This document shows, piece after piece, positions 1 through 18,468 of a DNA stretch of 32,000 nt. The notes under the pieces were generated by a model that was not told the origin of the DNA, did no database searches, and worked only from the letters and a program-made list of their open reading frames with translations. Origin of the DNA: Candidatus Omnitrophota bacterium (GTDB taxonomy: Bacteria > Omnitrophota > Gorgyraeia > Zapsychrales > JANLHA01); contig OY759724.1 of assembly GCA_963662715.1 (NCBI GenBank), forward strand, positions 720,001 through 752,000. The letters are read 5' to 3'. Within the stretch, counting starts at the first letter, position 1. Each line of letters begins with the position of its first letter. The translations under genes were made by a program, and so were the position numbers.

Positions 1-3000
1 CTTCTGGTCTTCGACACATTCCTTCTTCGGATCTTCGACACATACCGCGCATTCCTCCTGTGACAGCAGACCTAAATCTTCGCATTCTTCCGGCTTGTCC
101 ACACAACCGTAACATTGTTTCCCTTCCCTGGTCTTTTGATCCTCGACACATTCCTTCTTCGGGTCTTCGGCACATACCGCGCATTCCTCCTGTGACAGCA
201 GACCTAAGTCTTCGCATTCTTCCGGCTTGTCCATACAGCTGTAGCATTGCCGGCCTTCTTTAGTCTTCTGGTCTTCGACACATTCCTTCTTCGGATCTTC
301 GACACATACCGCGCATTCCTCCTGTGACAGCAGACCTAAATCGACGCATTCTTCCGGCTTGTCCACACAACCGTAACATTGTTTCCCTTCCCTGGTCTTT
401 TGATCCTCGACACATTCCTTCTTCGGGTCTTTGGTGCAAATCGCGCACTCTTCTTCAGCCAGCAATCCAAGGTCGACGCATTCTTCCGGCTTGTCCATAC
501 AGCTGTAGCATTGCCGGCCTTCTTTAGTCCTCTGGTCTTCGACACATTCCTTCTTCGGATCTTCGACACATACCGCGCATTCCTCCTGTGACAGCAGGCC
601 TAAATCTTCGCATTCTTCCGGCTTGTCCACACAACCGTAACATTGTTTCCCTTCCCTGGTCTTTTGATCCTCGACACATTCCTTCTTCGGGTCTTCGGCA
701 CATACCGCGCATTCCTCCTGCGACAGCAGGCCTAAATCTTCGCACTCTTCCGGCTTATCCATACAGCTGTAGCATTGCCGGCCTTCTTTAGTCTTCTGGT
801 CTTCGACACATTCCTTCTTCGGATCTTCGACACATACCGCGCATTCCTCCTGTGACAGCAGACCTAAATCTTCGCATTCTTCCGGCTTGTCCACACAACC
901 GTAACATTGTTTCCCTTCCCTGGTCTTTTGATCCTCGACACATTCCTTCTTCGGGTCTTCGGCACATACCGCGCATTCCTCCTGTGACAGCAGACCTAAA
1001 TCTTCGCATTCTTCCGGCTTGTCCATACAGCTGTAGCATTGCCGGCCTTCTTTAGTCCTCTGGTCTTCGACACATTCCTTCTTCGGATCTTCGACACATA
1101 CCGCGCATTCCTCCTGTGACAGCAGACCTAAATCGACGCATTCTTCCGGCTTGTCCACACAACCGTAACATTGTTTCCCTTCCCTGGTCTTTTGATCCTC
1201 GACACATTCCTTCTTCGGGTCTTTGGTGCAAATCGCGCACTCTTCTTCAGCCAGCAATCCAAGGTCGACGCATTCTTCCGGTTTGTCCATACAGCTGTAG
1301 CATTGCCGGCCTTCTTTAGTCCTCTGGTCTTCGACACATTCCTTCTTCGGGTCTTTGGTGCAAATCGCGCACTCTTCTTCAGCCAGCAATCCAAGGTCGA
1401 CGCATTCTTCCGGTTTGTCCATACAGCTGTAGCATTGCCGGCCTTCTTTAGTCCTCTGGTCTTCGACACATTCCTTCTTCGGATCTTCGACACATACCGC
1501 GCATTCCTCCTGTGACAGCAGACCTAAATCTTCGCATTCTTCCGGCTTGTCCACACAACCGTAACATTGTTTCCCTTCCCTGGTCTTTTGATCCTCGACA
1601 CATTCCTTCTTCGGGTCTTCGGCACATACCGCGCATTCCTCCTGCGACAGCAGGCCTAAATCTTCGCACTCTTCCGGCTTATCCATACAGCTGTAGCATT
1701 GCCGGCCTTCTTTAGTTTTCTGATCCTCGACACATTCCTTCTTCGGATCTTCGACACATACCGCGCATTCCTCCTGCGACAGCAGACCTAAATCTTCGCA
1801 TTCTTCCGGTTTATCCATACAGCTGTAGCATTGCCGGCCTTCCCTGGTCTTCTGATCTTCGACACATTCCTTCCTCGGGTCTTCGACACATACCGCGCAT
1901 TCCTCCTGTGACAGCAGACCTAAGTCTTCGCATGCTTCCGGCTTGTCCATACAGCTGTAGCATTGCCGGCCTTCTTTGGTCTTCTGATCTTCGACACATT
2001 CTTTCTTCGGGTCTTCGACACATACCGCGCATTCCTCCTGTGACAGCAGACCTAAATCTTCGCATGCTTCCGGCTTATCCACACAGCTGTAGCATTGCCG
2101 GCCTTCTTTGGTCTTCTGATCTTCGACACATTCTTTCTTCGGGTCTTCGACACAAATCGCGCACTCTTCTTCAGCCAGCAATCCAAGGTCGACGCATGCT
2201 TCCGGTTTATCCACACAGCTGTAGCATTGCCGGCCTTCTTTAGTCTTCTGATCTTCGATACATTCCTTCTTCGGGTCTTCGACACATACCGCGCATTCCT
2301 CCTGTGACAGCAGACCTAAATCTTCGCATGCTTCCGGCTTATCCACACAGCTGTAGCATTGCCGGCCTTCTTTGGTCTTCTGATCTTCGACACATTCTTT
2401 CTTCGGGTCTTCGACACATACCGCGCATTCCTCCTGTGACAGCAGACCTAAATCTTCGCATGCTTCCGGTTTATCCACACAGCTGTAGCATTGCCGGCCT
2501 TCTTTAGTCTTCTGATCTTCGATACATTCCTTCTTCGGGTCTTCGACACATACCGCGCATTCCTCCTGCGACAGCAGGCCTAAATCAATACATTCTTCCG
2601 ATTTATCCATACAGTTGTAGCATTGCCGGCCTTCCTTGGTCTTCTGATCCTCGACACATTCCTTCTTCGGGTCTTTGACACATACCGCGCATTCCTCCTG
2701 TGACAGCAGACCTAAATCGACGCATTCTTCCGGTTTATCCATACAGCTGTAGCATTGCCGGCCTTCTTTAGTTTTCTGATCCTCGACACATTCTTTCTTC
2801 GGGTCTTCAGCACATACCGCGCATTCCTCCTGTGACAGCAGGCCTAAATCTTCGCATGCTTCCGGTTTGTCCATACAGCTGTAGCATTGCCGGCCTTCTT
2901 TGGTCTTCTGATCTTCGACACATTCTTTCTTCGGGTCTTCAGCACATACCGCGCATTCCTCCTGTGACAGCAGGCCTAAATCTTCGCATGCTTCCGGCTT

Positions 3001-4260
3001 GTCCATACAGCTGTAGCATTGCTGACCTTCTCTGGTCTTTTGATCTTCGACACATTCCTTCTTCGGGTCTTCGACACATACCGCGCATTCCTCCTGCGAC
3101 AGCAGGCCTAAATCAATACATTCTTCCGGCTTGTCCACACAGCCGTAGCATTGCCGGCCTTCTTTGGTCTTCTGATCCTCGACACATTCTTTCTTCGGGT
3201 CTTTGGTGCAAATCGCGCACTCTTCTTCAGCCAGCAATCCAAGGTCATCGCATTCTTCCGGTTTGTCCATACAGCTGTAGCATTGCCGGCCTTCTTTAGT
3301 CTTCTGATCTTCGATACATTCCTTCTTCGGGTCTTCGACACATACCGCGCATTCCTCCTGCGACAGCAGGCCTAAATCAATACATTCTTCCGGTTTGTCC
3401 ATACAGCTGTAGCATTGCCGGCCTTCCTTGGTCTTTTGATCTTCGACACATTCTTTCTTCGGGTCTTCGACACATACCGCGCATTCCTCCTGTGACAGCA
3501 GGCCTAAATCGTCGCACTCTTCCGGCTTATCCATACAGCTGTAGCATTGCCGGCCTTCTTTAGTCTTCTGATCCTCGACACATTCTTTCTTCGGGTCTTC
3601 GACACATACCACGCATTCCTCCTGCGACAGCAGGCCTAAATCAATACATTCTTCCGATTTATCCATACAGCTGTAGCATTGCTGTCCTTCTTTAGTCTTC
3701 TGATCCTCGACACATTTCTTCCTCGGATCTTCAGTGCAAATCGCGCACTCTTCTTCAGCCAATAATCCAAGGTCGACGCATTCTTCCGGTTTATCCACAC
3801 AGCTGTAGCATTGCTGTCCTTCTCTGGTCTTCTGATCCTCGACACATTTCTTCCTCGGATCTTCAGTGCAAATCGCGCACTCTTCTTCAGCCAATAATCC
3901 AAGGTCGACGCATTCTTCCGGTTTATCCATACAGTTGTAGCATTGCTGTCCTTCTCTGGTCTTCTGATCCTCGACACATTTCTTCCTCGGATCTTCAGTG
4001 CAAATCGCGCACTCTTCTTCAGCCAATAATCCAAGGTCGACGCATTCTTCCGGTTTATCCATACAGCTGTAGCATTGCTGTCCTTCTCTGGTCTTCTGAT
4101 CCTCGACACATTTCTTCCTCGGATCTTCAGTGCAAATCGCGCACTCTTCTTCAGCCAATAATCCAAGGTCGACGCATTCTTCCGGTTTATCCATACAGCT
4201 GTAGCATTGCTGTCCTTCCTTGGTCTTCTGATCCTCGACACATTTCTTCCTGCGATCTTT
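1..4260. repeat. Tandem array of about 32 near-identical 132-bp units, coding and in frame, with higher-order periodicity. Six more diverged units continue to about 4975.
   Basis: The anchor string cataccgcgc (A-type unit) or gcaaatcgcgc (B-type unit) recurs at exactly 132-bp steps: 41, 173, 305, 437(B), 569, 701, 833, 965, 1097, 1229(B), 1361(B), 1493 ... 3737(B), 3869(B), 4001(B), 4133(B). Block 1..528 recurs almost identically at 793..1320, a 792-bp (6-unit) higher-order repeat. Off-frame track ORFs 60..263 and 852..1055 differ by one residue. Units with anchors at 4265 to 4925 keep the protein motif but are diverged at the DNA level. Confidence 0.95.
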
Positions 4261-5208
4261 CTCGCATCTTCTGCATTCTGACTCAGATATTAAACCCAAA
4301 TCCGTGCACTCTTTAGGCTTATCCACACAGCTGAAGCATTGCTTGCCTTCTTTGGTCTGCTGAGCTTCAACACATTCCTTCTTCGGATCCCTGCCACACT
4401 TTTTGCATTCTGCTTTTGACATCAATCCCAAATCTGCACATTCTTCCGGTTTATCAATGCAAAGATAACATTGAGTACCCTCTTTCGTTTTTTTGCTAAG
4501 AACACATTCCTTTTTCGGGTTAGTTTCACAAAGATCACATTCCTGCACATCCAGCAATCCCAAATCCGGACATTTTTCTATCCGATTGACGCATTCAAAA
4601 CAAGATAATCCCACTCCAATATCTTTAGAAAATTTACACTCTTTACCGGGGTTAATCTCGCAACCTTCCTGACACTCGCCCCAAGCTAAAAGGTCAAAAT
4701 CCGAGCATTTTTCATGACTCTCTTTACACTCAAAGCATTGCCGGCCCTGCTTAGTTCTCTTTGAACGCACGCATTCCGCCCCCGGGATCTCTGCGCAAAG
4801 CTGACACTCTTCTCTATTAAGCAATCCGATATCGTTACATTGCTGAAGTTTCTCCGTACACTCATAACACTGCAGGCCTTCATTAGTACGGCGGGAGCGC
4901 CGGCATTCCGCATTAGGAATTTCATCGCACAGGGAACACTCCTCCTCGGTAATGAGGCCTATCTCACTGCACAACTGCGGCAATAATTCTGTAGTGATCG
5001 GGATGTCCTTATCTGGGGTATGGAAGGTTGCTCCTTTCTTAGGATTCGGAAAGGGCAGAGTTTGACGCTTCTTTTTTATCTCCTCCCAAAATTTCTTTAG
5101 ATCAAAAGCCTCTGCCGGACGGACTAAGGGAGAAGCAAAAAATGAACCGCAGATTATTCCAAGAACACATAGTACAATCCGTAAATCATTTTTACGTCTA
5201 ATTGTCAT
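1..5208 (-). CDS. Giant secreted, acidic, cysteine-rich tandem-repeat protein (N-terminal 1736 codons; the frame is open to the left window edge, so the 3' end is outside the window)
   Basis: Absent from the supplied ORF track because there is no stop codon inside the window. Hand translation of the minus strand from ATG 5208..5206 gives MTIRRKNDLRIVLCVLGIICGSFFASPLVRPAEA/FDLKKFWEEIKKKRQ..., a Sec-type signal peptide with an AxA site. About 38 in-frame 44-aa units follow, with consensus T-[KR]-E-G-x-Q-C-Y-x-C-x-D-K-P-E-E-C-x-D-L-G-L-L-x-x-E-E-C-A-x-C-x-E-D-P-K-K-E-C-V-E-D-Q-K. I translated 5208..4261 and 264..1 codon by codon and found no stop. Every minus-strand ORF the track lists inside 1..5208 starts at a coordinate with mod 3 = 1 or 2. 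The frame with mod 3 = 0 never produces a start-to-stop ORF, as expected if it is continuously open. The 132-bp period equals 44 codons, so every repeat copy preserves the frame. Confidence 0.85.
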   Translation of the reverse strand, partial: MTIRRKNDLRIVLCVLGIICGSFFASPLVRPAEAFDLKKFWEEIKKKRQTLPFPNPKKGATFHTPDKDIPITTELLPQLCSEIGLITEEECSLCDEIPNAECRRSRRTNEGLQCYECTEKLQQCNDIGLLNREECQLCAEIPGAECVRSKRTKQGRQCFECKESHEKCSDFDLLAWGECQEGCEINPGKECKFSKDIGVGLSCFECVNRIEKCPDLGLLDVQECDLCETNPKKECVLSKKTKEGTQCYLCIDKPEECADLGLMSKAECKKCGRDPKKECVEAQQTKEGKQCFSCVDKPKECTDLGLISESECRRCEKDRRKKCVEDQKTKEGQQCYSCMDKPEECVDLGLLAEEECAICTEDPRKKCVEDQKTREGQQCYSCMDKPEECVDLGLLAEEECAICTEDPRKKCVEDQKTREGQQCYNCMDKPEECVDLGLLAEEECAICTEDPRKKCVEDQKTREGQQCYSCVDKPEECVDLGLLAEEECAICTEDPRKKCVEDQKTKEGQQCYSCMDKSEECIDLGLLSQEECVVCVEDPKKECVEDQKTKEGRQCYSCMDKPEECDDLGLLSQEECAVCVEDPKKECVEDQKTKEGRQCYSCMDKPEECIDLGLLSQEECAVCVEDPKKECIEDQKTKEGRQCYSCMDKPEECDDLGLLAEEECAICTKDPKKECVEDQKTKEGRQCYGCVDKPEECIDLGLLSQEECAVCVEDPKKECVEDQKTREGQQCYSCMDKPEACEDLGLLSQEECAVCAEDPKKECVEDQKTKEGRQCYSCMDKPEACEDLGLLSQEECAVCAEDPKKECVEDQKTKEGRQCYSCMDKPEECVDLGLLSQEECAVCVKDPKKECVEDQKTKEGRQCYNCMDKSEECIDLGLLSQEECAVCVEDPKKECIEDQKTKEGRQCYSCVDKPEACEDLGLLSQEECAVCVEDPKKECVEDQKTKEGRQCYSCVDKPEACEDLGLLSQEECAVCVEDPKKECIEDQKTKEGRQCYSCVDKPEACVDLGLLAEEECAICVEDPKKECVEDQKTKEGRQCYSCVDKPEACEDLGLLSQEECAVCVEDPKKECVEDQKTKEGRQCYSCMDKPEACEDLGLLSQEECAVCVEDPRKECVEDQKTREGRQCYSCMDKPEECEDLGLLSQEECAVCVEDPKKECVEDQKTKEGRQCYSCMDKPEECEDLGLLSQEECAVCAEDPKKECVEDQKTREGKQCYGCVDKPEECEDLGLLSQEECAVCVEDPKKECVEDQRTKEGRQCYSCMDKPEECVDLGLLAEEECAICTKDPKKECVEDQRTKEGRQCYSCMDKPEECVDLGLLAEEECAICTKDPKKECVEDQKTREGKQCYGCVDKPEECVDLGLLSQEECAVCVEDPKKECVEDQRTKEGRQCYSCMDKPEECEDLGLLSQEECAVCAEDPKKECVEDQKTREGKQCYGCVDKPEECEDLGLLSQEECAVCVEDPKKECVEDQKTKEGRQCYSCMDKPEECEDLGLLSQEECAVCAEDPKKECVEDQKTREGKQCYGCVDKPEECEDLGLLSQEECAVCVEDPKKECVEDQRTKEGRQCYSCMDKPEECVDLGLLAEEECAICTKDPKKECVEDQKTREGKQCYGCVDKPEECVDLGLLSQEECAVCVEDPKKECVEDQKTKEGRQCYSCMDKPEECEDLGLLSQEECAVCAEDPKKECVEDQKTREGKQCYGCVDKPEECEDLGLLSQEECAVCVEDPKKECVEDQK

Positions 5209-7325
5209 TTCTTATCCGAAATATCCACCCCTTCCGGAACAACCTTTTGGGGAATGCTCATGGTTATCTGGACTTGACCGTTATCTAAAAATTGCTCTGC
5301 TTCAACAATCAACAGTTCTTCGATTTCAGTTTCATCTATATGGCAAATATCCGCTAATTCTTTCTTCGTCTGTTCAATTGTCAATTTTTTAGCCATCTCT
5401 TTTTGAATTTCCTCACTAGCATTCTGCATTTTTAATGGTTTGGAAATCCGGGTAAAGTAAATTCTTTCCTCCTGCTGAAGCGCCCCGGGATCAAAAGTAA
5501 AGACTTTGACTTCATCTACGTTATAATCAGAAACATATATTTTCCCTTCTGACCAAGACACAGAAGAAAGAGAAGGGAAATAACTACGCCCTCTGCCAAT
5601 ACTGCCGAACTGCATAATAAGCTGATTCTTGGGGGTAAATATCTTTATAGCGTGATCGCCTCGATCGGCCACATACAAGTTATCATTATCATCCAAAGCA
5701 ATATCAATGGGATCTTTAAACTTGATCATATCTTTCCTGCCGCCGACCTCTCTTAAAAACAGGCCCTCATGGTCGAAGACCTGAATACGGTTATTCTTAT
5801 AATCCAGCACATATAATTCGCCTTTGGAATTAAACGCCAAATCTTTCGGTTCAGAAAAAGTGCCCGGCTTGGGGCCGTGGACATACACCTCTTCACTCTC
5901 TTTCCCGAACGTTTTCAGATAAATTCCGTCGCTGTTGAACACCTGGATCCGGTTATTTTTTGAATCAGAGATATAAATATACCCCTCATCATCAAGGGTT
6001 ACCCCGCCTAAAGCAAGAAATTCGCTCCGGTCTTTTCCTTTCTTGCCAAATTGATAATCAAAGGAACCATCCGCCTTCAAGAATTGCACGCGGTGATTAC
6101 CCGTATCCGTGATAAGAATACGCCCGTCTTCAGCGACAAATAAGGCTTGCGGGTTTCTAAGTTTGCGGTTTTCATCTTCTGTTTTCCCGAATACGAGTTT
6201 CGTGTCGCCAATAAAGGTGATTTGAGCATAATAATCTGACAGGGCATACAATCCCCGGCCCGGGACAGCCTTCAGATCCGCGATCATTTTCCCTGTATAA
6301 ATTGAGGAATCATAATCAAGCATGGGAGGGACAAAAGGAACCGTCTTTAAAGCAGTTTTGCTGCTCCCGGTAATGTTGAAAAACTGGATCCTCCCATTCA
6401 TAGTATCTGCAATATACACCTTACCATCAAGATCACAGGAAATACTTGCCGGCCAATTAAACTGCCCCTTGCCAACCCCCTGAGACCCGAACGAAAACAG
6501 AATCTGTTCTGTCTGGTCCATCTTGACAATGCTGTTGTTCTTCCATTCAATGAGATAAATATCACCCCGGTAATCGACCGCGATACCGGCTGTTTCTGTT
6601 AAGTAGTTCGTTTCCGCATTCTTTAACGACAACTCCTCTGGATTTCCCTGATTGGGAGGATATTTCACAATCTTTCCTTCTTCCTGCGCCAAAACATAAA
6701 GATTCCGCTGTTTATCAAAAGCTAAATCATAAGGACTGAAGTTCACCCCCATGGTTTCCAAAAACACTCCTTTGGGGGTATACTTGGTAATTGCATTATT
6801 TTTTATATCTGCCACGTATATGTACCCGAGAGGATCCACGGCAACCGAACTGATTCTGCGATATTCACCCGGCTCTTTGCCTCCGTTGCCCATTTCATAC
6901 AGGAACTCACCGCTTGCTTTAAAGACCTGTAAACGGTTGTTTCCGGTGTCCGCCACAATAACATCCCCTGAAGAAGTCAAAGCAATGGATTCCGGGACAT
7001 GGAACTGTTTTAACTGGGTGCCCTGTTCTCCGAAACTCAATTTTATTTTTCCTTCGGGACCAAAAATAAAAACTTTAGCCAATTTTCTGTCCAGGACATA
7101 GATGTCACCGGTGGCCGATATGACAGTATCCACGGGTTCCGCCAGTTCGGCCACGATTTCTCCAAGGAACTCAACTTCTTCAACCGCCGACACTCGCCCT
7201 GCGGGAACGAAAATCAAAGACAACACCATAACGATCGGGAAAAACCTCCATCGACTTATTTTCTTCTGAATTTTTGTTTTCATTTGATGTATCCTTTCTT
7301 GCAATTTTTCATTTTTTCTTTTCAT
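5205..7325 (-). CDS. Secreted NHL-repeat protein: about 12 NHL blades (two six-bladed beta-propellers) plus an acidic C-terminal tail
   Basis: Track ORF 5205..7331. About 12 recurrences of the NHL signature P-x-x-[IL]-A-[LV]-D-x-x-G-x-[IL]-Y-[VI]-[AS]-D-x-x-N-x-R-[IV]-Q-[VF]-F-x-x-x-G-x-[FL], for example GDVIVADTGNNRLQVF, GYIYISDSKNNRIQVF, GELYVLDYKNNRIQVF, GRILITDTGNHRVQFL and GKVYIADTMNGRIQFF. The N-terminal hydrophobic segment FFPIVMVLSLIFVPAGRVSA/VEE looks like a signal peptide. I prefer ATG 7325..7323 as the start. AGGAGG at 7337..7332 abuts the TTG at 7331 with no spacer but lies 6 nt from that ATG. The TGA stop at 5207..5205 overlaps the ATG of the downstream giant ORF. Confidence 0.9.
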   Translation of the reverse strand: MKRKNEKLQERIHQMKTKIQKKISRWRFFPIVMVLSLIFVPAGRVSAVEEVEFLGEIVAELAEPVDTVISATGDIYVLDRKLAKVFIFGPEGKIKLSFGEQGTQLKQFHVPESIALTSSGDVIVADTGNNRLQVFKASGEFLYEMGNGGKEPGEYRRISSVAVDPLGYIYVADIKNNAITKYTPKGVFLETMGVNFSPYDLAFDKQRNLYVLAQEEGKIVKYPPNQGNPEELSLKNAETNYLTETAGIAVDYRGDIYLIEWKNNSIVKMDQTEQILFSFGSQGVGKGQFNWPASISCDLDGKVYIADTMNGRIQFFNITGSSKTALKTVPFVPPMLDYDSSIYTGKMIADLKAVPGRGLYALSDYYAQITFIGDTKLVFGKTEDENRKLRNPQALFVAEDGRILITDTGNHRVQFLKADGSFDYQFGKKGKDRSEFLALGGVTLDDEGYIYISDSKNNRIQVFNSDGIYLKTFGKESEEVYVHGPKPGTFSEPKDLAFNSKGELYVLDYKNNRIQVFDHEGLFLREVGGRKDMIKFKDPIDIALDDNDNLYVADRGDHAIKIFTPKNQLIMQFGSIGRGRSYFPSLSSVSWSEGKIYVSDYNVDEVKVFTFDPGALQQEERIYFTRISKPLKMQNASEEIQKEMAKKLTIEQTKKELADICHIDETEIEELLIVEAEQFLDNGQVQITMSIPQKVVPEGVDISDKK

Positions 7326-7340
7326 TTTCAACCTCCTAAA

Positions 7341-7375
7341 ATAAAAAATGCCTATCCCGGATAAGGTATAGGCAT
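7341..7375 (-). terminator. Hairpin plus U-tract immediately upstream of the NHL gene RBS; proposed expression platform of the proximal riboswitch
   Basis: The minus-strand RNA reads AUGCCUAU-ACCUUAUCCGGG-AUAGGCAU followed by UUUUUAUUUU, then AGGAGG. The stem is 8 bp and can be extended by CC/GG pairs inside the loop. Only a few nucleotides separate the U-tract from the Shine-Dalgarno sequence. That placement is typical of an attenuator rather than an end-of-operon terminator. Confidence 0.6.
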
Positions 7376-7385
7376 ATATTATAAT

Positions 7386-7470
7386 ATTTCGGTAACCAGG
7401 CTGTCCTTATCCCAGGACCCTATAGCTTTGCGTCCCCACCTTGCGATGGGTTTGCCCTTTTCGTCTATGT
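7386..7470 (-). promoter_or_regulatory. c-di-GMP-I (GEMM-I) riboswitch aptamer, proximal copy
   Basis: Minus-strand RNA: GACGAAAAGGGCAAACCCAUCGCAAGGUGGGGACGCAAAGCUAUAGGGUCCUGGGAUAAGGACAGCCUGGUUACCGAAAU. It aligns by eye to the Vibrio cholerae Vc2 aptamer (ACAGGGCAAACCAUUCGAAAGAGUGGGACGCAAAGCCUCCGG...GGGGUUACCGAUGG). GGGCAAACC is identical, then comes a hairpin closed by a GNRA tetraloop (CCCAUC-GCAA-GGUGGG), then GGGACGCAAAGC is identical. A second bulged hairpin follows (GGGUCC...GGAC-AG-CC), then GGUUACCGA. Confidence 0.8.
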
Positions 7471-7471
7471 C

Positions 7472-7509
7472 AAAACAACAAAACCTATCCTTTAGACAAG
7501 AATAGGCCT
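7472..7509 (-). terminator. Hairpin plus U-tract between the two aptamers; proposed expression platform of the distal riboswitch
   Basis: Minus-strand RNA: AGGCCUAUUC-UUGUCUAAA-GGAUAGGUUUUGUUGUUUU. The core stem CCUAUUC/GGAUAGG is 7 bp including one G-U pair and can be extended by wobble pairs. A U-rich tract follows. Confidence 0.5.
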
Positions 7510-7527
7510 GATCACGATCCAAAACGG

Positions 7528-7615
7528 CGTTGATTCGGGAACTGGCTATCCTTGATAAAGGACCCTGTAGCTTTGCGTCCCCACCTTGCGATGGGTTTGC
7601 CTTTTTCGTCAATCT
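7528..7615 (-). promoter_or_regulatory. c-di-GMP-I (GEMM-I) riboswitch aptamer, distal copy
   Basis: Minus-strand RNA: GAUUGACGAAAAAGGCAAACCCAUCGCAAGGUGGGGACGCAAAGCUACAGGGUCCUUUAUCAAGGAUAGCCAGUUCCCGAAUCAACG. It has the same conserved core as the proximal copy. The two copies share a 51-nt near-identical stretch, plus strand 7415..7465 versus 7560..7610, with 2 mismatches. The second hairpin shows a compatible change relative to the proximal copy: GGAU-AG-CC versus GGAC-AG-CC, a G-U pair versus a G-C pair. Confidence 0.75.
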
Positions 7616-7629
7616 ATTTTTCCAGTCCA

Positions 7630-7658
7630 AGTATATAATATTCATATTCAAAAAGCAA
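7630..7658 (-). promoter_or_regulatory. Candidate sigma70-like promoter for the riboswitch leader
   Basis: The minus strand reads TTGCTT (7658..7653), then 17 nt, then TATACT (7635..7630), about 15 nt upstream of the distal aptamer. The -35 is a weak match in an AT-rich context, so this could be chance. Confidence 0.3.
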
Positions 7659-7705
7659 ATAGATCGTTTTCCGGCTCACCTGCGGCATGTCCTGCAATAA
7701 AAAAA

Positions 7706-8835: not shown

Positions 8836-10154
8836 TCACACTCGCTTCCGAAGAAAATAACAGTTTGATTTGTATAAAACATCCCTGCGACACAGGCGGT
8901 CAACAAACAAGCAAGTGTGGCCGCCAAGAGTGCCCGCCAGGAAACATCGGCCAACAGGCTCCGTCTTTCATGCGTTAAAGCGGAAATTCCTCCCACGAAA
9001 ATAGCCATGGAGGCCAAGTGGGCAAACCCGCACAGCGCATAAGTCGCAATAACAACAGAACGGGCATGGATAATTTGTCCTGAATTTATTAGCGCGGCCA
9101 AATCCTGATAAGCCACCACTTCGGTGACAACGGCCCGTTCAGCGACAATCCCCGCTATGGGGCCGGCATCCTGCCAAGGAACACCTAAAAGGAGGGTAAA
9201 CGGGAAACACAAATATCCCAGCAGGCTTGCCAGTGACCAATTCAGTTTAAATCCCAGCCAGGGATTGATAACGCTGCCGACTCCCCCAAGAATCACATCT
9301 ATTAAAGCGACCAGTCCTAATACGGCGATTAATAAAGCCACAATTCCAACGATCATCTGAACCCCGGCATTGGCTCCGTTCATAATGGCCTCGAAAAGGG
9401 TTCTTTCCTTCTCATAGTACGGCTGGACACGCACACCTAAGGTCGTTGGCGTTTCCTGTTCCGGGACAAGAAGTTTGGAAATGACAAGTGCGGCCGGGGC
9501 CGAAAGCAAGGAAGCCGAAATCAGATGGGCGGCAATCGTAGGGAACGTGTCTCTTAAGGTCATAACATAAAGGGCCAGGACATTAGAGGATACCGTGGAC
9601 ATGCCCACGGCCAAAATCGTACAAGCCTCGGAACGCGTCATGTCTTTCAGATAAGGTTTAACGGTCAAGGCGGATTCGATTCCGACAAAAATATTGCTGG
9701 CGGCCACAAGGGACTCCATCCCGGAGACCCTCATCAGTTTTGTAAAAACAAAAGCAAACGCCCGGATGATGCGCGGCATGATATTGCAAAAATACAAGAC
9801 AGAAACAAGAGCGGAGAAAAAAATGATCGTGGGGAAGCCCTGAAAAGCCAAAATAAACCCCAAAGAAGATTCCCCGGCCGGTCCGGTTTCTCCCGGGGGA
9901 AAAGCTAATCTTCCAAAAACGAACTTACTTCCTGCCGAAGCGGCTTCAAGCACTTGAATGACAACATCGTTAAGAAAAAGGAAGACCCGTGCCCCGGCCG
10001 GAAGGACAAAAATAAACACGCCCATCAACAGCTGTAATCCCACCCCCCAGAGAACAACCTTACGGTTGATGGAAGAGCGGTTTTCAGATAAAAGCCAGGC
10101 AAAGATTAAAAGAGTCAGGAAACCGGAGAAACTAATCAGGTTATAAATCCCCAT
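8829..10154 (-). CDS. nupC: Concentrative nucleoside transporter, NupC/CNT family
   Basis: 441-aa polytopic membrane ORF. GFILAFQGFPTIIFFSALVSVLYFCNIMP and the C-terminal YALCGFAHLASMAIFVGGI match conserved NupC blocks as I recall them from E. coli NupC (..ALCGFANFSSIGI..). Confidence 0.8.
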   Translation of the reverse strand: MGIYNLISFSGFLTLLIFAWLLSENRSSINRKVVLWGVGLQLLMGVFIFVLPAGARVFLFLNDVVIQVLEAASAGSKFVFGRLAFPPGETGPAGESSLGFILAFQGFPTIIFFSALVSVLYFCNIMPRIIRAFAFVFTKLMRVSGMESLVAASNIFVGIESALTVKPYLKDMTRSEACTILAVGMSTVSSNVLALYVMTLRDTFPTIAAHLISASLLSAPAALVISKLLVPEQETPTTLGVRVQPYYEKERTLFEAIMNGANAGVQMIVGIVALLIAVLGLVALIDVILGGVGSVINPWLGFKLNWSLASLLGYLCFPFTLLLGVPWQDAGPIAGIVAERAVVTEVVAYQDLAALINSGQIIHARSVVIATYALCGFAHLASMAIFVGGISALTHERRSLLADVSWRALLAATLACLLTACVAGMFYTNQTVIFFGSECEC

Positions 10155-10397
10155 GAACGGCCCGTTTGTTCTGGTGTTTTATAAAATTATTTTTAGAATA
10201 TTAATATTACTTCTTTATTAATTATTTTCTATCTTATTGATAGTATTATAATTGAGAGAATGGAATGGTTTTATTTTATTTTACTTTTTTTTATGAAAAC
10301 ATCAACTTCCATATTATTAAAAATCATTTCCGAAAGGAAAAGTGCGGGAGAGCGAGATAGGGAATCTTAAAAAACATGCTCCAAAGACTTAAATGTC

Positions 10398-11693
10398 TCA
10401 AACTTCTCTTAAATACCCCCAGGCGTGCAGCCGGTCGCTGTCATCATACCAACGGTCACCGATATCTTTACGGTAATACATGCTCGGGATGATCACATTG
10501 TTAACCCGGTTGTAGACCTGATTTTGGGCCTGTTTCATCGTCTGTCCTTGTCCGCAGACAACCAAAGCGACCCCGGTATTCCCGGCAATAAGCCACTGCT
10601 GATTGATTCTTTTAACATCTTCAATGTGAATCCCGTCAAGATTTTCTGATTTCTTAAAAAGGATAGCCGCATCTTTCGACTGGGACTGGAAAGTGTTGTC
10701 GTCATTGAAAGGATATGGAGGGGCCACAATCCGCACCCCGATCTGAAATCCCCGGCGGGTTTTAAAAGTGTTAAGGGAACCCTCTGCCAGCTGAAAAAGA
10801 AAATCAGAAATAGGGATGAGGATTCCTTCCTGCTGAATGCTGATCGTCGGATATCCAAAGCGTGATGTGAACTCCAAAGGATAAATCCCTTGAGCGTTAA
10901 CAATACAGTTGATATCGATATATCCGACATAATGTTCTTCCTGAAGCTTTTTTTCCATCTTTTTAAGCGTAGCGTTAAAAATCCTGTTCGCTCCGCTCCA
11001 GTACATAAACGTGCCCATCTCTCCTGTCGAAGGGCCGATATTCCCGGGAAAAAGTTTTTTGTGTTCAAAGTTGATATTAATGGGAAACGCGAATTCTTTT
11101 CCGTTGAAAAAGGCGCCTACGGCAACTTCAACACCGGCCATCCTTTTTTGCAGCTGAAAAATCTTGATTTCATTAAACCAGGCTTTTTTGTAAGCTTCCA
11201 AAACCTGAATAATATCTTTGCCGTCTTCTTCCTGCCCGACAAAAAGCAGGCGTTTGATATTTTGAGCCTCACCGCTGGGTTTGATCACGTAACGGGAAGG
11301 ATTGGCTTTCACGTAGGAAACGGCATCATCAAAAGAAGAAAATTCCATAAAGGGGATAATATTAATACCCGCGGATTTCATCTCCTGTTGCCCAAAGGTC
11401 CGGTCATCCTCCAGCCTGTCTGTATACGGGGTGCCTCCTATAACGTATTTCCCTTTACGTCTAAGATCCTGAGCCAGATGTCCGAACCCGAGGACATCAT
11501 CAAAAACAATCACGTCGGCCCATTCGATATCCCGGGTCCAGTCATCCGTTTTCGGGACAAAACCATCGGCAACATCCTTGGCGGACTCATTCTTAATAAA
11601 ATATTTAACGTCATGTCCTTGATTTACGACCTGCCAGGCAATATCATTGATCAAGGCGTCATAAGAAACAAATAAAAATTTCTTTTTATCCAC
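10398..11693 (-). CDS. PurD-like ATP-grasp ligase (divergent phosphoribosylamine-glycine ligase homologue)
   Basis: 431-aa ORF with a GTG start preceded by GGAGGA. FEHKKLFPGNIGPSTGEMGT parallels PurD DHKR..DGD.GPNTGGMG. GYIDINCIVNAQGIYPLEFTSRFGYP parallels PurD G.LY.GLM.T..GPKVLEFN.RFGDPE. VIKPSGEAQ parallels V[VI]KADGLAAGKG. The N-terminus lacks the canonical GSGGREHA motif. Confidence 0.55.
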   Translation of the reverse strand: MDKKKFLFVSYDALINDIAWQVVNQGHDVKYFIKNESAKDVADGFVPKTDDWTRDIEWADVIVFDDVLGFGHLAQDLRRKGKYVIGGTPYTDRLEDDRTFGQQEMKSAGINIIPFMEFSSFDDAVSYVKANPSRYVIKPSGEAQNIKRLLFVGQEEDGKDIIQVLEAYKKAWFNEIKIFQLQKRMAGVEVAVGAFFNGKEFAFPININFEHKKLFPGNIGPSTGEMGTFMYWSGANRIFNATLKKMEKKLQEEHYVGYIDINCIVNAQGIYPLEFTSRFGYPTISIQQEGILIPISDFLFQLAEGSLNTFKTRRGFQIGVRIVAPPYPFNDDNTFQSQSKDAAILFKKSENLDGIHIEDVKRINQQWLIAGNTGVALVVCGQGQTMKQAQNQVYNRVNNVIIPSMYYRKDIGDRWYDDSDRLHAWGYLREV

Positions 11694-11773
11694 CTGTCTG
11701 CTCCTCCCGCAAAGACCCTATCCGGTCATACCCAAAGCCAGTTCAATAAAATCCACGGGCGCTCCCCTCCCGT

Positions 11774-12868
11774 CTACTCATCTCCGAAACAGGTCCCGAC
11801 AGAACGCGCCGAACGGATAAGCAGATGATTGTTCGAAATAAGCCTCGGGCCAATCGCCACCTCCTGCAGCGGGACATCGATGACCTGCCCTCCTTTGAGG
11901 CCCACCATATATCCGAACTTTTTATTCTGAATCATATCAACGACCTGTGTGCCGAACTGTGTTGCCAGCACCCGGTCGTAGGCACTCGGAGAGCCGCCCC
12001 GCTGCAGGTGTCCCATGACAACGGCCCGCGCCTCCAATCCGGTCATTTTTTCGATCTGGTCCACCAGGACAAAACTGACCCCGCCCAAACGCACCGGCTC
12101 CGAGGCATCTTTCACGATTTTTTTCACAACCACTGCTCCGCCCTTTGGTTTGGCGCCCTCAGCGACAACGATGATACTAAATCGCTTTCCTTTTTTACTT
12201 CTTTCCTTGACCCGGCTGGCAATCACATCTATATCATAAGGGATCTCGGGGATAAGGATAATGTCCCCGCCCCCGGCAATCCCGGCGTACAAAGCAATCC
12301 ATCCAGCTGTCCGCCCCATCACCTCTAAAACCATGACCCGATGGTGGGACTGGGCTGTCGTATGAAGCCGGTCGATACCCTCCGTGGCGATCTCCACCGC
12401 CGTATCAAAACCAAACGTCACTTCCGTTCCCCGGATATCGTTATCGATCGTCTTAGGCACCCCCACGATCGGTATGCCGTCCTCGAATAAATGATGGGCG
12501 ATTTTCAAAGTTCCGTCCCCGCCGATGCAGACAAGACAACACACACCGAGCTCCTTGATAGTCTTTATGACTTTCTTGGAAACATCTTTGGGGGTCGCTG
12601 ACTTGTCTTTGGGATCGATGTATTTATAAGGATTCGCTTTATTAGACGTCCCCAGAATCGTCCCGCCCAAAGTCAGGATACCGGAAACGGCTTGATAGTC
12701 CAAATGACGGTACCGGTGCTTGATCAAACCTTCATAACCGTCTTCAATTCCGATAACCTCGAGCCCAAGATCCAAGATGGCTTTTTTCGTTACGGCCCGG
12801 ATGACCCCGTTTAACCCCGGGCAGTCTCCCCCGCCGGTTAAAACTGCTATTTTCTTTTTCACCGTCAT
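11774..12868 (-). CDS. pfkA: 6-phosphofructokinase (PfkA family)
   Basis: 364-aa ORF containing the hallmark blocks GGGDCPGLNGVIR, CIGGDGT, PKTIDNDI, GFDTA, MGRTAGWIALYAG and GHLQRGG. Confidence 0.92.
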   Translation of the reverse strand: MTVKKKIAVLTGGGDCPGLNGVIRAVTKKAILDLGLEVIGIEDGYEGLIKHRYRHLDYQAVSGILTLGGTILGTSNKANPYKYIDPKDKSATPKDVSKKVIKTIKELGVCCLVCIGGDGTLKIAHHLFEDGIPIVGVPKTIDNDIRGTEVTFGFDTAVEIATEGIDRLHTTAQSHHRVMVLEVMGRTAGWIALYAGIAGGGDIILIPEIPYDIDVIASRVKERSKKGKRFSIIVVAEGAKPKGGAVVVKKIVKDASEPVRLGGVSFVLVDQIEKMTGLEARAVVMGHLQRGGSPSAYDRVLATQFGTQVVDMIQNKKFGYMVGLKGGQVIDVPLQEVAIGPRLISNNHLLIRSARSVGTCFGDE

Positions 12869-13008
12869 AAAACACCTCTTTCTTTTATCAAATCATTCCT
12901 TGTTTTTATTTCTTTATCATTACCGCAAATAACGACAAGAGCCTCGACAGACTCCCTTTCTGTTCCTTTCTCCATCGCGGATATAGCCCCATCATAATAG
13001 AACAATCA

Positions 13009-14802
13009 TCAATCGTCAATGTTTGCTTCCGGGACATCCCTGCCGGACGACAGCATCAGTCGTTGCAGCTTCTGCAGATCTTCTTGAGCTTTAAGAATCT
13101 TTTCGGCCTGCTGATAAACCCTTTGGGCTTCTTGATCCTGACGAAGGATTTTATGAACAAAAATCAAATAACCGAAATCGGAAACTCGCGGAGACTGGAT
13201 CAAGTCTAAATTCTTTTGGAAATATATCAACGCCTGCCGAAACGCTCCCTTCCGGATCATGACTTCCCCTAATCCTTTATACGGCAGATGAAAATACGGG
13301 TACCGCCGGACAGCTCTTCTAAAATAATATTCCGCAACTTGCGGCTCATCCAGCCGGCAATATCCGAGGAAACAAAAAACTCTCGGATCATCCGCGCCCA
13401 AGGCAAGGCTTTTTTCTAACGCCCACCGGGATAACTGACAATTTCCCCGTTTAAACGCCAATATCCCCATTGTCTGGTAACCCGACTTGTCTTCCGGATA
13501 GGCCTTAACCAAGGCCCGTGCCAATACGTCATCGTTTTTCCAGACCGTATTTAAATAATTCAGTTTTAATAAACAGACCGCCACCATTCCTGCTTTCAAA
13601 ATCAACCCCAGCCGCGGGTGACCGGAGGAAAAAGGACTCCTCTTTATCCCGCGGTCTATCAGCAGGCCCAAAGCGGCAAAAAAACCTATCGACGGGACAT
13701 AGAGATATCGGTGAGCCACCGGGTTCACAAGAGGAATACTGTGAGAAACAGGGAAAAAAGCGGCCAGGAACCAAAACAAGAAAAAAGGCAAAGGGCCTTT
13801 TGTCTTTCTCATCTTGATGAGCATCGCCATGATAAGCATATAAAAAGCGCCACCCAGAATCACGCTGACAAACGACAGGGAACTTAAAGGAAGTTTATAA
13901 TCGCCGGGGACCACTTTAACTTTCCAGGGGAAAAGCATCTCCGTGCATTGGAAATAAAAAATCTGTAAAACCTCCTGCAGGTGGATCAGGGGCCGGGCAT
14001 GTATTTTCATCTGACTCAAAGTTGTGTTCGGGAAAACACAAAGATAAACATACAAGTAAAAACAGGAAATGAGGCCGATTCCCATCAGAAAGGGCCGGGA
14101 CCTTCGCAATCTATCCGCCGTCGTCCGCATATAATAAAGATATCCTCCGACAAGCAGCGGGAAGACGAGCGCGGATTCTTTTGTAAATAACGCCAAGAAG
14201 TACATCGCTAAAGAAACACACAAGAGAGGGACGCTCTGCCGGGGCAGATCCCCTCGCCCCCCACAATTACGGCTGGAAAGAACCGCCATTGCCCGTTCAG
14301 CCCGGATAAAACAGAGGAAAGCGGCAAGCAAAAAAAAGCAGGACAGGCTGTCGGCACGATACCCGACCGTGGAAACAACCTCTGCTTTTGTCGGATGAAC
14401 GGCAAACAAGCTGGTCCCGAACAAGGCCGCACTTTGGCTGTGCGACAGAAGCATAATGACAAAATAAACTGAAATGACATTCAGAATATGCAGAAACAGA
14501 TTATGGGCGTGATATCCGAAAGGCGCCAGCGAACACAGCCAGCGCTCAAAAAAAAAGGTCAGGGACAGCACCGGGCGATAAGCGACCGAACCGGAACTAA
14601 AAATAATGGTATTCCCGAACAGAACGTCTTCCCCGCGGGTTAAATACTTGTCGTCGAATAAATGGCGCAGGTGGCCCGGCTGGGCGTAAAAACGGTTATG
14701 AACGATAAAAGAGACTTCGTCACCGACAAATCCGTTAGAGAGGCTATTATGAAAGGCAAGAAATGTTAAAAGAATAAGGAATAAAATTGCTTTTGGCGCC
14801 AT
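13009..14802 (-). CDS. Polytopic membrane protein with C-terminal TPR repeats (TMTC/PMT-like, GT-C-type putative glycosyltransferase)
   Basis: 597-aa ORF. The N-terminal segment NGFVGDEVSFIVHN resembles the F-x-x-DD-x-x-I-x-x-N motif of TMTC/DUF1736-type proteins. About 10 hydrophobic helices follow. The C-terminal 170 aa or so carry TPR-like repeats (AYPEDKSGYQTMGILAFKRGNCQLSRWALEKSLAL..., YFRRAVRRYPYFHLPYKGLGEVMIRKGAFRQALIYFQKNLDL). Confidence 0.55.
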   Translation of the reverse strand: MAPKAILFLILLTFLAFHNSLSNGFVGDEVSFIVHNRFYAQPGHLRHLFDDKYLTRGEDVLFGNTIIFSSGSVAYRPVLSLTFFFERWLCSLAPFGYHAHNLFLHILNVISVYFVIMLLSHSQSAALFGTSLFAVHPTKAEVVSTVGYRADSLSCFFLLAAFLCFIRAERAMAVLSSRNCGGRGDLPRQSVPLLCVSLAMYFLALFTKESALVFPLLVGGYLYYMRTTADRLRRSRPFLMGIGLISCFYLYVYLCVFPNTTLSQMKIHARPLIHLQEVLQIFYFQCTEMLFPWKVKVVPGDYKLPLSSLSFVSVILGGAFYMLIMAMLIKMRKTKGPLPFFLFWFLAAFFPVSHSIPLVNPVAHRYLYVPSIGFFAALGLLIDRGIKRSPFSSGHPRLGLILKAGMVAVCLLKLNYLNTVWKNDDVLARALVKAYPEDKSGYQTMGILAFKRGNCQLSRWALEKSLALGADDPRVFCFLGYCRLDEPQVAEYYFRRAVRRYPYFHLPYKGLGEVMIRKGAFRQALIYFQKNLDLIQSPRVSDFGYLIFVHKILRQDQEAQRVYQQAEKILKAQEDLQKLQRLMLSSGRDVPEANIDD

Positions 14803-14823
14803 AACAATCTTCAGATTTCCGAT

Positions 14824-14844
14824 AAAAAAAGCCCATGCCCGGGC
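14824..14844 (-). terminator. Small GC hairpin plus U7 downstream of the PilZ gene
   Basis: The minus-strand RNA reads GCCC-GGGCAU-GGGC followed by UUUUUUU, 30 nt after the PilZ stop codon. The stem is short (4 bp, all GC). Confidence 0.4.
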
Positions 14845-14874
14845 AAAGCACAGGCCAGGACAGCCCTGTAAAAC

Positions 14875-15264
14875 TTACGCAGGAGAGGCCGCGGGAGCAT
14901 ATTTTCCTTTGCCAAAAAATTCCACTAATTTTTCAGCGTAAAATTTGACAAATTTCCGCTCATCAAATTTTATCGGATCAACAATCTTAACACCTACCCG
15001 GTAAAGCAACGGATAATCCGTCGGCCGGCCTTTTTCCTGTTCAACCCGTACGATTTTCGCATGAAGTTCAATTTTCATATTAATCGGCAGTAAAAGAAAC
15101 ATCAGGAGTTCCTGCCGGATCTGCAGTTCTTCCGTTGTTATAAAAGCCACTCCCGTTCCGCTGATATCCAGCGTTGCCGTGTCGATGAGTTTTTTTCGGG
15201 GGGGAACCCTGAAGCTCATCGGAATTTCAAGTTTCATCCGGTGATATCGTCTTTTATCTGACAT
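14875..15264 (-). CDS. Single-domain PilZ protein (predicted c-di-GMP receptor)
   Basis: 129-aa ORF. It has the N-terminal RRYHR (RxxxR) motif and D-I-S-G-T-G (DxSxxG) about 30 residues later, the two signature c-di-GMP-binding motifs of PilZ domains. Confidence 0.8.
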   Translation of the reverse strand: MSDKRRYHRMKLEIPMSFRVPPRKKLIDTATLDISGTGVAFITTEELQIRQELLMFLLLPINMKIELHAKIVRVEQEKGRPTDYPLLYRVGVKIVDPIKFDERKFVKFYAEKLVEFFGKGKYAPAASPA

Positions 15265-15330
15265 AAAAAAACCTCCTCTTTAAAAAATCCTGGTCAAAAA
15301 ACCCAAAAGTCGGTAGATTCGAATTCTTTC

Positions 15331-15356
15331 CAAAAGGGCCGCAGCGAACAAGGCCC
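15331..15356 (-). terminator. Weak candidate intrinsic terminator downstream of the membrane protein gene
   Basis: The minus-strand RNA reads GGGCC-UUGUUCGCUGC-GGCCC followed by UUUUGG. The stem is 5 bp with an 11-nt loop. Confidence 0.3.
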
Positions 15357-15421
15357 AGCGGGGCGCCATCACATACAATGTTCTTTTACCCGCCATTTTT
15401 CTGTTTCTTCACAGGCCCCTG

Positions 15422-15967
15422 TCAGGCCGCAGGCTTGCTTACGGTCTGACGGTCTTCCTGCTTCATCTGCACGACAATACCAACGGTCGCCAATAACACA
15501 AACAAAATAGGCTGCCAGGACACAACAATCTCACTGGACTCTAAAATAAAAAGAGCGCCGGCTAAGGACGTCAGGGCGATAATAACCGTGTCAAAAAGCA
15601 TAAAAGACAGCGTGCCGCCGATAATCCCCCCGACAAGCAATAAGATGATAAAAGGCACGCTCGGGAATCCGAGAATAATCCAAAGGCTGTTCAGCAAATA
15701 GCCGCCACCAAGGAAACCCGCGTAAACGATGGCCACTTTCTGCATAAAGATCAGGAAAATCACCCCTGCTGCCCCTAAAGCCGTTGCCAGGATAGCCTGA
15801 ACCCAGATGGATTGGTTATAAAAAAATATTGTGCCTAACTGAAGCCCGACATAAAATCCCATCGTACCGATAAAAAGCCAAAACAGCTTTCGCCCCAAAA
15901 ACAGCAGTAAGGAACCGATAGCCAACTGAACTAGTCCTAGCCAGAAGAAATAATTCGTTATCTCCAT
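15422..15967 (-). CDS. Small polytopic membrane protein (about 6 TM helices, Gly-rich); family not recognised
   Basis: 181-aa ORF that is hydrophobic almost throughout, with a short charged C-terminal tail (KQEDRQTVSKPAA). It lies 10 nt downstream of tag on the same strand. Confidence 0.7.
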   Translation of the reverse strand: MEITNYFFWLGLVQLAIGSLLLFLGRKLFWLFIGTMGFYVGLQLGTIFFYNQSIWVQAILATALGAAGVIFLIFMQKVAIVYAGFLGGGYLLNSLWIILGFPSVPFIILLLVGGIIGGTLSFMLFDTVIIALTSLAGALFILESSEIVVSWQPILFVLLATVGIVVQMKQEDRQTVSKPAA

Positions 15968-15976
15968 ATACGACTC

Positions 15977-18438: not shown

Positions 18439-18468
18439 TCGGAAAGCCGGCAACGTTCAGCGCCGTTA

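Follow-up and report, generated by a model that had tools for sequence, protein, structure and literature searches.

Tandem riboswitches of the c-di-GMP-I class (also called GEMM-I), in which each sensor of cyclic di-GMP (c-di-GMP) has a separate expression platform, are common, with 347 doublets and 12 triplets reported (PMC9481103), and they are enriched in some phyla (PMC12452182). In such systems, for example the triple tandem of Bacillus thuringiensis, complete aptamers with their own terminators stand before genes for exported or surface proteins. They have the canonical G20/A47/C92 ligand pocket, and pseudo-cooperative, more digital behavior is expected of them. We have analyzed a 32,000-nucleotide (nt) stretch of DNA, here called the window (contig OY759724.1, positions 720,001 to 752,000), from an uncultivated, Omnitrophota-like host, in which two switches of this kind precede a gene for a double NHL propeller and a gene for a giant, predicted secreted protein built of Cys-rich repeats. 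The window resembles the described systems in its aptamers, terminators, and pockets, and differs from them in its host, in its two downstream genes, and in the predicted polarity of its switches, which is OFF; moreover, loci related to the window have aptamers with large insertions in P2 and P3. Given the number of doublets already reported, the tandem arrangement itself, which is one part of the candidate new module of the initial annotation of this DNA, is real but ordinary and not new.

In the Cd1-type c-di-GMP-I riboswitch of the Clostridioides difficile flagellar operon, the ligand favors a downstream intrinsic terminator, and the operon is expressed at low c-di-GMP. We propose the same OFF logic for the window, whereas here the switches are in tandem, the cargo is different, and the polarity is predicted from structure and covariation only. 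The giant protein, for its part, recalls the EGF, LDL-A, and TNFR cysteine-rich domains of eukaryotes, modules of ~40 amino acids (aa) in rod-like extracellular proteins, which are of similar size, have six invariant cysteines, and are likewise strung in tandem like beads on a string. In addition, the propellers of LRP6 bind the Cys-rich protein Dkk1, and in the window a double six-bladed propeller gene likewise lies beside Cys-rich modules. These likenesses are analogies only, since there is no match of sequence or fold and both the Cys spacing and the secondary structure differ.

Organization of the locus

All features of the unit lie on the minus strand, in the order promoter, aptamer 1 with terminator 1, aptamer 2 with terminator 2, NHL gene, and giant Cys-repeat gene.

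7630..7658, minus strand: candidate promoter read from the sequence (-35 TTGCTT at 7658..7653, 17-nt spacer, -10 TATACT at 7635..7630)
7533..7610, minus strand: GEMM-I (c-di-GMP-I clan) aptamer 1 (cmscan 65.3 bits, E 1.8e-13, full model 1-80)
7471..7509, minus strand: intrinsic terminator 1 from a terminator scan (stem-loop 7509..7481, then UUUUGUUGUUUU, tail to ~7471)
7387..7465, minus strand: GEMM-I (c-di-GMP-I clan) aptamer 2 (cmscan 65.5 bits, E 1.5e-13, full model)
7338..7374, minus strand: intrinsic terminator 2 (stem-loop UGCCUAUACC-UUAUCC-GGGAUAGGCA at 7374..7349, then UUUUUUAUUUU; U residues at 7348..7338)
7337..7332, minus strand: ribosome-binding site AGGAGG, directly after terminator 2, with the NHL ATG at 7325
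5205..7325, minus strand: gene of the NHL protein, 706 aa (ATG at 7325, stop at 5205)
1..5208, minus strand: gene of the giant secreted Cys-repeat protein (ATG at 5208, 3' end beyond the window)
1..4386, no strand assigned: tandem DNA repeat under the protein repeat (period 132 nt, 33.2 copies, 87% matches, no indels)

As first annotated, the TGA stop codon of the NHL gene and the ATG of the giant gene at 5208 overlap as ATGA, and the giant open reading frame (ORF) stays open for 1736 codons up to the window edge, so that its length is a lower bound. The promoter block is kept in two related loci, L001 and L002, and recurs as TTGCAT...TATACT before the orthologous leaders of two others, L003 and L007; a consensus scan missed it because its -35 element matches at only three of six positions. 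The data support treating the leader and the two genes behind it, NHL and giant, as a single conserved unit.

Two aptamers with canonical ligand pockets

An Rfam cmscan search of the whole window gave exactly two matches at or above the gathering score, aptamers 1 and 2, and at a relaxed threshold nothing else notable appeared in the leader. The best-scoring model over the full length was RF03167 (c-di-GMP-I-GGC; 65 bits against a gathering score of 59), while two more matches to clan CL00126, each above its own gathering score, were suppressed as overlaps, placing both elements in the c-di-GMP-I/GEMM-I group. The initial annotation had proposed two GEMM-I-like aptamers, each with its own hairpin and U-tract, and both the full-length aptamers and the terminators were recovered; the Rfam model that it had named, RF01051, was replaced by RF03167 as the best match. 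In the cmscan alignment, however, the RF03167 consensus reads GACGC-G-AAgC, while both window aptamers read GACGC-A-AAGC. We do not file them as the GGC variant, because they have the canonical A, in the A47 column, at the one junction position where that consensus has G; the meaning of "GGC" is presumed here from the model consensus and the family name.

The ligand contacts of the Vc2 aptamer are G20, A47, and C92 (PMC4744006, PMC5888326). These numbers were put onto the Rfam structure line by a mapping of our own, not one taken from a publication, with G20 as the junction base immediately preceding the G-C pairs of P2, A47 as the base after GACGC, and C92 as the base before the 3' strand of P1. 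Aptamer 1 has the junction GACG-AAAAAG-GC and the pocket segments GACGC-A-AAGC and ...UUCC-CG, and aptamer 2 has the junction GACG-AAAAGG-GC, with A47 and C92 canonical. Both aptamers have G, A, and C at the three aligned positions, and because both pockets are canonical, control of the operon by c-di-GMP is, judging from these sequences, very likely.

Variants selective for cyclic GMP-AMP (cGAMP), known as c-AMP-GMP or GEMM-Ib, are marked by A instead of G at position 20 (PMC9481103). Specificity of the window aptamers for cGAMP was rejected, position 20 being G in both, as it is in all aptamers of L001, L002, L006, and L007; A was found only in aptamer A of L004. Just 5' of G20 the two window units differ, unit 1 having A and unit 2 having G. 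L001 and L002 preserve the distinction, a hint that the two switches may have different affinities.

Recurrence of the module in related loci

The NHL protein was found to be 100% identical to a database protein (P0002), of which an exact copy lies on a 3.36-Mb contig, with relatives at 75 and 73% identity. The co-occurrence of NHL gene, Cys-repeat gene, and GEMM-I leader for which the initial annotation had suggested a survey was found in L001, L002, and L006, with expanded aptamers scoring below threshold in L003 and L004/L005. L001 (NHL identity, 75%) has the same neighborhood, with two aptamers, the NHL gene, a complete 1709-aa giant gene, and an ATGA-type overlap, while L006 (72%, labeled Candidatus Omnitrophota) has both aptamers, the NHL gene, and the start of a giant gene at its contig end. 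L002 (73%) has the aptamers and the NHL gene, followed by a giant gene broken into five ORFs of 606, 288, 167, 375, and 269 aa (10118..15383), reflecting either long-read frameshift errors in the repeat or a decaying copy. Farther away, the giant gene encodes 2252 aa in L003 (49%) and 1681 aa in L004/L005 (46%, Omnitrophota), with a gap of 33 to 54 nt between it and the NHL gene in both. Units of L003 and L004 are of the window type and ~41 to 44% identical to one another; the six cysteines are invariant in 76 of 76 such diverged units, T29 and G32 are nearly so, and every complete giant protein ends in a conserved Cys-containing cap. The three-part module is conserved across three lineages.

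Although neither L003 nor L004 gave an Rfam match at the gathering score, a relaxed threshold returned GEMM-I matches (E 0.05 to 0.06) exactly in their NHL leaders and on the right strand. Read directly, these leaders have the conserved promoter and the segments GACGA..GGCA.ACC, GACGCAAAGC, and GGGTCC..GGATAGCC..CCGAA, split by long insertions, as well as terminators of the GGCCTATTC type like those of the window. The insertion-bearing leaders lie at 7390..7620 and 7670..7970 in L004 and at 7720..7960 in L003, and they keep the pocket segments and terminators; the insertions are multihairpin expansions in P2 and P3 and, in L003, also beside the GACG/CAAAAC junction. The first aptamer of L004 (7396..7412) reads GACG-AUAAUA-GC, with A at the G20 position, and the second has G, so that L004 may, on this sequence, be a mixed cGAMP/c-di-GMP tandem.

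One further locus, L007 (45%, Omnitrophota), has a single standard GEMM-I aptamer before its NHL orthologue and no Cys-repeat gene after it. Instead, the NHL gene is followed by genes for MshEN-T2SSE, T2SSF, PilM/N, PilO, and a secretin (locus 9842..20901), a type IV pilus/MSHA-like cluster, and the orthologue itself has a long insertion in its C-terminal tail. MshEN, here a domain of the cluster's ATPase, is itself a c-di-GMP-binding domain, and L007 would be under c-di-GMP control at two levels if this MshEN binds the messenger. Since the NHL gene of L007 keeps the riboswitch without a giant gene, it is the NHL protein that constantly accompanies the riboswitch rather than the giant protein, and the presence of an NHL orthologue with a pilus/secretin cluster under a like riboswitch supports a role of the propeller in the cell envelope or a surface appendage. 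In metagenomes, the NHL alignment picked up only distant NHL proteins (at most 37% identity), with no Cys repeats or GEMM-like sequences nearby.

Terminators and predicted polarity of the switches

Each aptamer is followed by its own hairpin and U-tract, and both sets are kept in L001, L002, and L006, as in tandem riboswitches with independent expression platforms. The stem of terminator 1 is kept with compensatory changes in L001 and L002; the hairpin of terminator 2 is present in the minimum free energy (MFE) structure of its unit and is kept in all three loci. Both terminators lie wholly downstream of their own aptamers, by 25 and 12 nt, so that a ligand-locked aptamer cannot hide a terminator strand.

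Instead, each terminator has a 5' half that complements P3 of its own aptamer, in the loop and the 3' strand; in unit 1, the two segments are 7508..7497 of the terminator and 7554..7544 of the aptamer. When transcripts cut just before the 3' half of the terminator were folded (nine units from five loci), the MFE structure paired the terminator 5' half with the aptamer in eight of the nine, and this pairing was 3.5 to 9 kcal/mol better than the unpaired state. Antiterminator duplexes compared over 12 units had a mean of -12.3 kcal/mol for cognate and -10.1 kcal/mol for noncognate partners, the observed mean being reached by 1 of 20,000 permutations, a statistic weakened by the fact that the 12 units are not phylogenetically independent. 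Changes in the loop are compensated in the terminator, the pairs being CAAGGAUAG:CUAUUCUUG in the window, AACAGGGAUAG:CUAUCUUCUGUU in L001, and AAAAGGGAUAG:CUAUUCCUUUU in L004. The terminator core CCUAU...AUAGG is kept across lineages whose NHL proteins are only 45 to 49% identical, a degree of conservation that would be unexpected of a free-standing terminator.

Because the terminators lie outside the aptamers and a covarying antiterminator pairs the 3' strand of P3 with the terminator 5' half, both elements are predicted to be OFF switches, at which c-di-GMP would cause termination and repress the operon; from these models we consider this polarity probable. Two features of the same models call for caution. 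For several units, the full-length MFE structure is an extended helix that also pairs the 5' strand of P3 with the terminator 3' half just before the U-tract, and such a helix, ending at the U-tract, might still terminate transcription. The antiterminator of window unit 2 is also the weakest and covers mostly the terminator loop.

The usual pattern is that c-di-GMP induces matrix and adhesin genes, and the OFF prediction is the opposite of it. With all components unchanged, the switches could instead be ON, high c-di-GMP inducing the operon and the giant protein being a component of a biofilm matrix or an adhesin. Many c-di-GMP-controlled surface proteins are indeed induced by the messenger, c-di-GMP-I riboswitches in tandem before a B. 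thuringiensis gene set a precedent (cited in PMC9481103 and PMC12452182), and the thermodynamic models are ambiguous for some units. We nevertheless regard ON switches as unlikely: besides the position of the terminators outside the aptamers, the only conserved alternative pairing needs an unfolded P3, which is the ligand-free state. Of the second-messenger gating proposed in the initial annotation, control by c-di-GMP thus stands as very likely, while induction by the messenger is opposed by the expression platforms, which argue for OFF.

The 44-residue Cys-rich unit

Judged by eye, the giant protein has a typical n/h/c signal region at its N terminus, a plausible Sec signal peptide (MTIRRKNDLRIVLCVLGIICGSFFASPLVRPAEA|F) with putative cleavage after AEA. 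A pre-repeat segment of ~45 aa is followed by at least 37 units of 44 aa, a lower bound set by the window edge. Units recur at an exact 44-aa period; 36 of them strictly follow the Cys spacing C1-x10-C2-x2-C3-x7-C4-x11-C5-x2-C6-x6, and one is a C-x3-C variant. The spacing given in the initial annotation is the same pattern read from another phase. Over 1736 aa, the protein contains 228 Cys (13%) and 454 D plus E versus 251 K plus R, with an isoelectric point of 4.4.

No Pfam match at an E value of up to 0.1 and no NCBIfam match were found for the window protein, and the giant proteins of L003 and L004 had no Pfam match at an E value of up to 10, save one chance-level match to a domain of unknown function (E 0.75). 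There was no profile match to EGF, LDL-A, TNFR, furin-like, or Myxococcus Cys-rich repeat families, to none of which the unit was assigned. An AlphaFold 2 (AF2) model of three units, which rests on a shallow, window-only alignment, reached a predicted local distance difference test score (pLDDT) of 80 and shows, per unit, a short helix, a helix with C2-x2-C3, and a beta-hairpin with C4 and C5-x2-C6. Foldseek comparison of this model with the PDB gave nothing better than E 0.74, that is, chance matches only, and no zinc-finger match. The 44-aa six-Cys unit, which the initial annotation could not place in a characterized family, represents a new Cys-rich domain, rare and strictly periodic, that has no counterpart in Pfam, NCBIfam, or the PDB.

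When a profile of 89 diverse 44-aa units was compared with the PDB sequences, only the RING finger of Mdm2 matched (E 4.8e-5), with C2, C3, C5, and C6 opposite four Mdm2 cysteines that we take to be the ligands of its first zinc site. Assignment to RING or C3HC4 zinc fingers was rejected, as the match is partial, with no His, no second site, and no Pfam RING match, and the similarity is a weak lead rather than evidence of membership. Heme binding was likewise rejected, there being no CxxCH motif and only two His in 1736 aa. Three disulfides may stabilize the unit, or else one disulfide together with a Cys4 metal site.

This lead bears on whether the repeat is mainly metal binding, C2-x2-C3 and C5-x2-C6 forming a Cys4 knuckle for Zn or Fe, so that the protein would be a periplasmic or extracellular polymer of 37 to 50 centers for metal buffering, detoxification, or a redox chain rather than an adhesin. 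Paired CxxC motifs occur in every unit, the protein is strongly acidic, no solved structure other than the Mdm2 RING finger is related to the unit in sequence, and the Omnitrophota host lineage is anaerobic, which makes extracytoplasmic disulfides less assured. However, the Mdm2 match is weak and covers part of one RING protein, six cysteines are invariant rather than four, His is almost absent, and export appears to be of the Sec type, with no twin-arginine motif conserved across the orthologues. On balance, a mainly metal-binding repeat seems rather unlikely.

Relatives of the repeat in protein databases

An exhaustive phmmer search of 1.84 billion cluster representatives returned 31 proteins at E values of up to 0.001, 19 of them at up to 1e-10. 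Several of the 31 are fragments of a like Cys-unit array, and the long ones contain the window-type unit among further kinds of Cys-rich unit, with a Peptidase_S8 domain at the C terminus. Among these are P0122, P0125, P0130, P0134, P0137, P0144, P0145, and P0147, secreted proteins of 1300 to 2400 aa with several kinds of Cys-rich unit and a C-terminal subtilisin domain; in P0139, the C-terminal end is a C-terminal fragment of a secretin. The Peptidase_S8 proteins (P0122, P0125, P0134, and others) are the only detectable relatives, with which the window protein shares units of the form C-x-D-[LM]-G-[LM]-[LI]...C-x2-C...C-x11-C-[FY]-x-C, but they mix kinds of unit and carry a protease, whereas a single kind of unit makes up the whole array of the window protein, which has no enzymatic domain. 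From their sequences, the mixed proteins appear to form an uncharacterized superfamily.

When the N-terminal 440 aa of the giant protein were used in a word-indexed search of proteins, only P0001 matched, and the same kind of search with the 89-unit profile matched nothing; such an index evidently overlooks this type of repeat. P0001, of 263 aa on a 1.4-kb contig, has an HSP20-like N terminus, three repeat units, and an out-of-frame-looking tail, and is probably a chimeric assembly. In the literature, two preprints on giant proteins of Omnitrophota make no mention of this repeat family, of c-di-GMP, or of riboswitches, and no paper combining "c-di-GMP riboswitch" with "NHL repeat" was retrieved.

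The NHL double-propeller protein

The 706-aa protein matches Pfam NHL (PF01436) with 189.7 bits against a cutoff of 20 (E 1.1e-57), and twelve blade motifs can be read in its sequence. An AF2 model built with 26 orthologues (pLDDT 88, predicted template modeling score 0.77) shows an N-terminal helix (2-38, within segment 1-45), two six-bladed propellers (~50-330 and 336-611), and a C-terminal alpha/beta domain (~620-692), in line with the twelve blades counted in the initial annotation. In Foldseek searches, the single propellers matched the NHL domain of TRIM71 (E 1e-24, template modeling score 0.87), and the propeller pair matched LRP6, the ectodomains of Bacteroides hybrid two-component sensors, and PorZ. 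All of these are binding platforms, which supports, at the level of models, the view that the NHL protein is a ligand-binding platform as well.

Signal peptides had been annotated on both proteins and were judged here by eye. That of the giant protein is typical, while the N terminus of the NHL protein, a long basic stretch followed by one hydrophobic helix, is ambiguous and could be a signal peptide or a signal anchor. Identity with ScyF (NF035926), the scytonemin PEP-CTERM NHL protein, was rejected, the score of 265.5 bits lying below the equivalog cutoff of 350, and no PEP-CTERM motif was found at the C terminus.

NHL and other six-bladed propellers include enzymes, and the protein could be a lyase, a lactonase, or a cross-linking or modifying enzyme that acts on the giant protein or an unrelated substrate, adjacency then reflecting substrate-enzyme coupling, or only shared regulation, and not a structural partnership. 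Weak Pfam and NCBIfam matches to SGL/gluconolactonase and the streptogramin lyase Vgb, the stronger ScyF match, and the orthologue without a giant gene in L007 fit this possibility, yet every enzyme-family score is below its cutoff, in structure the protein comes closest to binding propellers (TRIM71, LRP6, and sensor ectodomains), and gene order and tight spacing are kept in three lineages. We therefore consider an enzymatic role quite unlikely.

Neighboring genes

A stand-alone PilZ-domain protein, of a c-di-GMP receptor family, is encoded at 14875..15264 (minus strand), ~7 kb upstream of the riboswitches, and is syntenic in L001. Farther along the window are genes for a 1951-aa bacterial alpha-2-macroglobulin with MG2, bait-region, TED, and MG10 domains (18469..24324, minus strand) and for a 1553-aa protein with HEAT-repeat matches only (25741..30402, minus strand), and another large ORF (30440..31999) leaves the window at its end.

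Proposed function of the operon

The long ORF could in principle be a nonfunctional or assembly-inflated repeat array (a contingency locus or pseudogene). In favor of this are the 87% DNA identity among its units over 4.4 kb, the split gene of L002, and the word-indexed search, which found almost nothing. Against it, three lineages have intact ORFs of 1681 to 2252 aa in which the units have diverged while the Cys stay invariant and the 44-aa register exact, and in which the N-terminal signal and C-terminal cap are conserved. We consider such an array extremely unlikely.

With somewhat better than even confidence, we favor the reading that the locus is an Omnitrophota-like two-gene operon under two c-di-GMP-I OFF riboswitches in series, encoding an exported giant rod and an anchored propeller that would act as a fiber or adhesin at low c-di-GMP. 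Transcription would start ~15 nt upstream of aptamer 1. At low c-di-GMP, the P3 loop and 3' strand of each aptamer would pair with the 5' half of the downstream terminator, giving an antiterminator and read-through, whereas with c-di-GMP bound in the G20/A47/C92 pocket the aptamer would be locked, the terminator hairpin would form, and transcription would stop. Two OFF switches in series would make repression tight and steep. From the read-through mRNA, the NHL protein would be made and, by translational coupling at the ATGA, the giant protein as well, and Sec would export both from the cytoplasm. We picture the giant protein as an acidic, beads-on-a-string rod of 37 to 50 small Cys-stabilized modules, each of helix plus beta-hairpin, ~100 nm long if a unit spans 2.5 to 3 nm, and the membrane-anchored double propeller would be its dedicated binding, assembly, or anchoring partner. 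Like the initial annotation, which had proposed a fiber, matrix, or adhesin with the NHL protein as partner or chaperone, we infer a surface fiber or adhesin as the likely role, here made in the low-c-di-GMP state.

Several observations weigh against this reading. The signal peptides of both proteins were assessed only by eye, no anchor or adhesive domain is recognizable in the giant protein, and no outer-membrane export route is evident within the window. Moreover, NHL homologues of 34 to 39% identity (L008, L009, L086, and L087) have no Cys-repeat gene nearby; there was no GEMM-I match at L008 and L009, the two that were scanned, and the neighbors in L008 and L086 are unrelated.

A more far-reaching version, in which the 44-aa unit is a new fold with a Cys4 center and the operon makes a c-di-GMP-gated extracellular chain of 37 to 50 metal sites, ~100 nm long and assembled or anchored by the propeller, either as a non-heme counterpart of cytochrome or pilus nanowires under riboswitch control or as a host-attachment fiber of episymbiotic Omnitrophota, strikes us as doubtful and quite improbable. 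In the reading that we favor, the protein pair is new as a family yet fits the known theme of c-di-GMP-controlled surface proteins, and the recurrence of the trio in uncultivated, Omnitrophota-like bacteria looks like a real messenger-controlled surface-fiber system without a characterized counterpart.

The locus ties a well-understood sensor of a second messenger to two conserved, functionally uncharacterized genes, in a phylum almost without cultured members, and the c-di-GMP level gives a concrete handle on when the cells make the giant surface protein. The natural GEMM-I aptamers with large insertions and the possible A20/G20 mixed tandem offer material for riboswitch biochemistry. If the OFF polarity is true, the operon would contribute a large protein, secreted and probably located at the surface, whose production is confined to low c-di-GMP, and this would bear on how host-dependent nanobacteria switch between the search and attached states.

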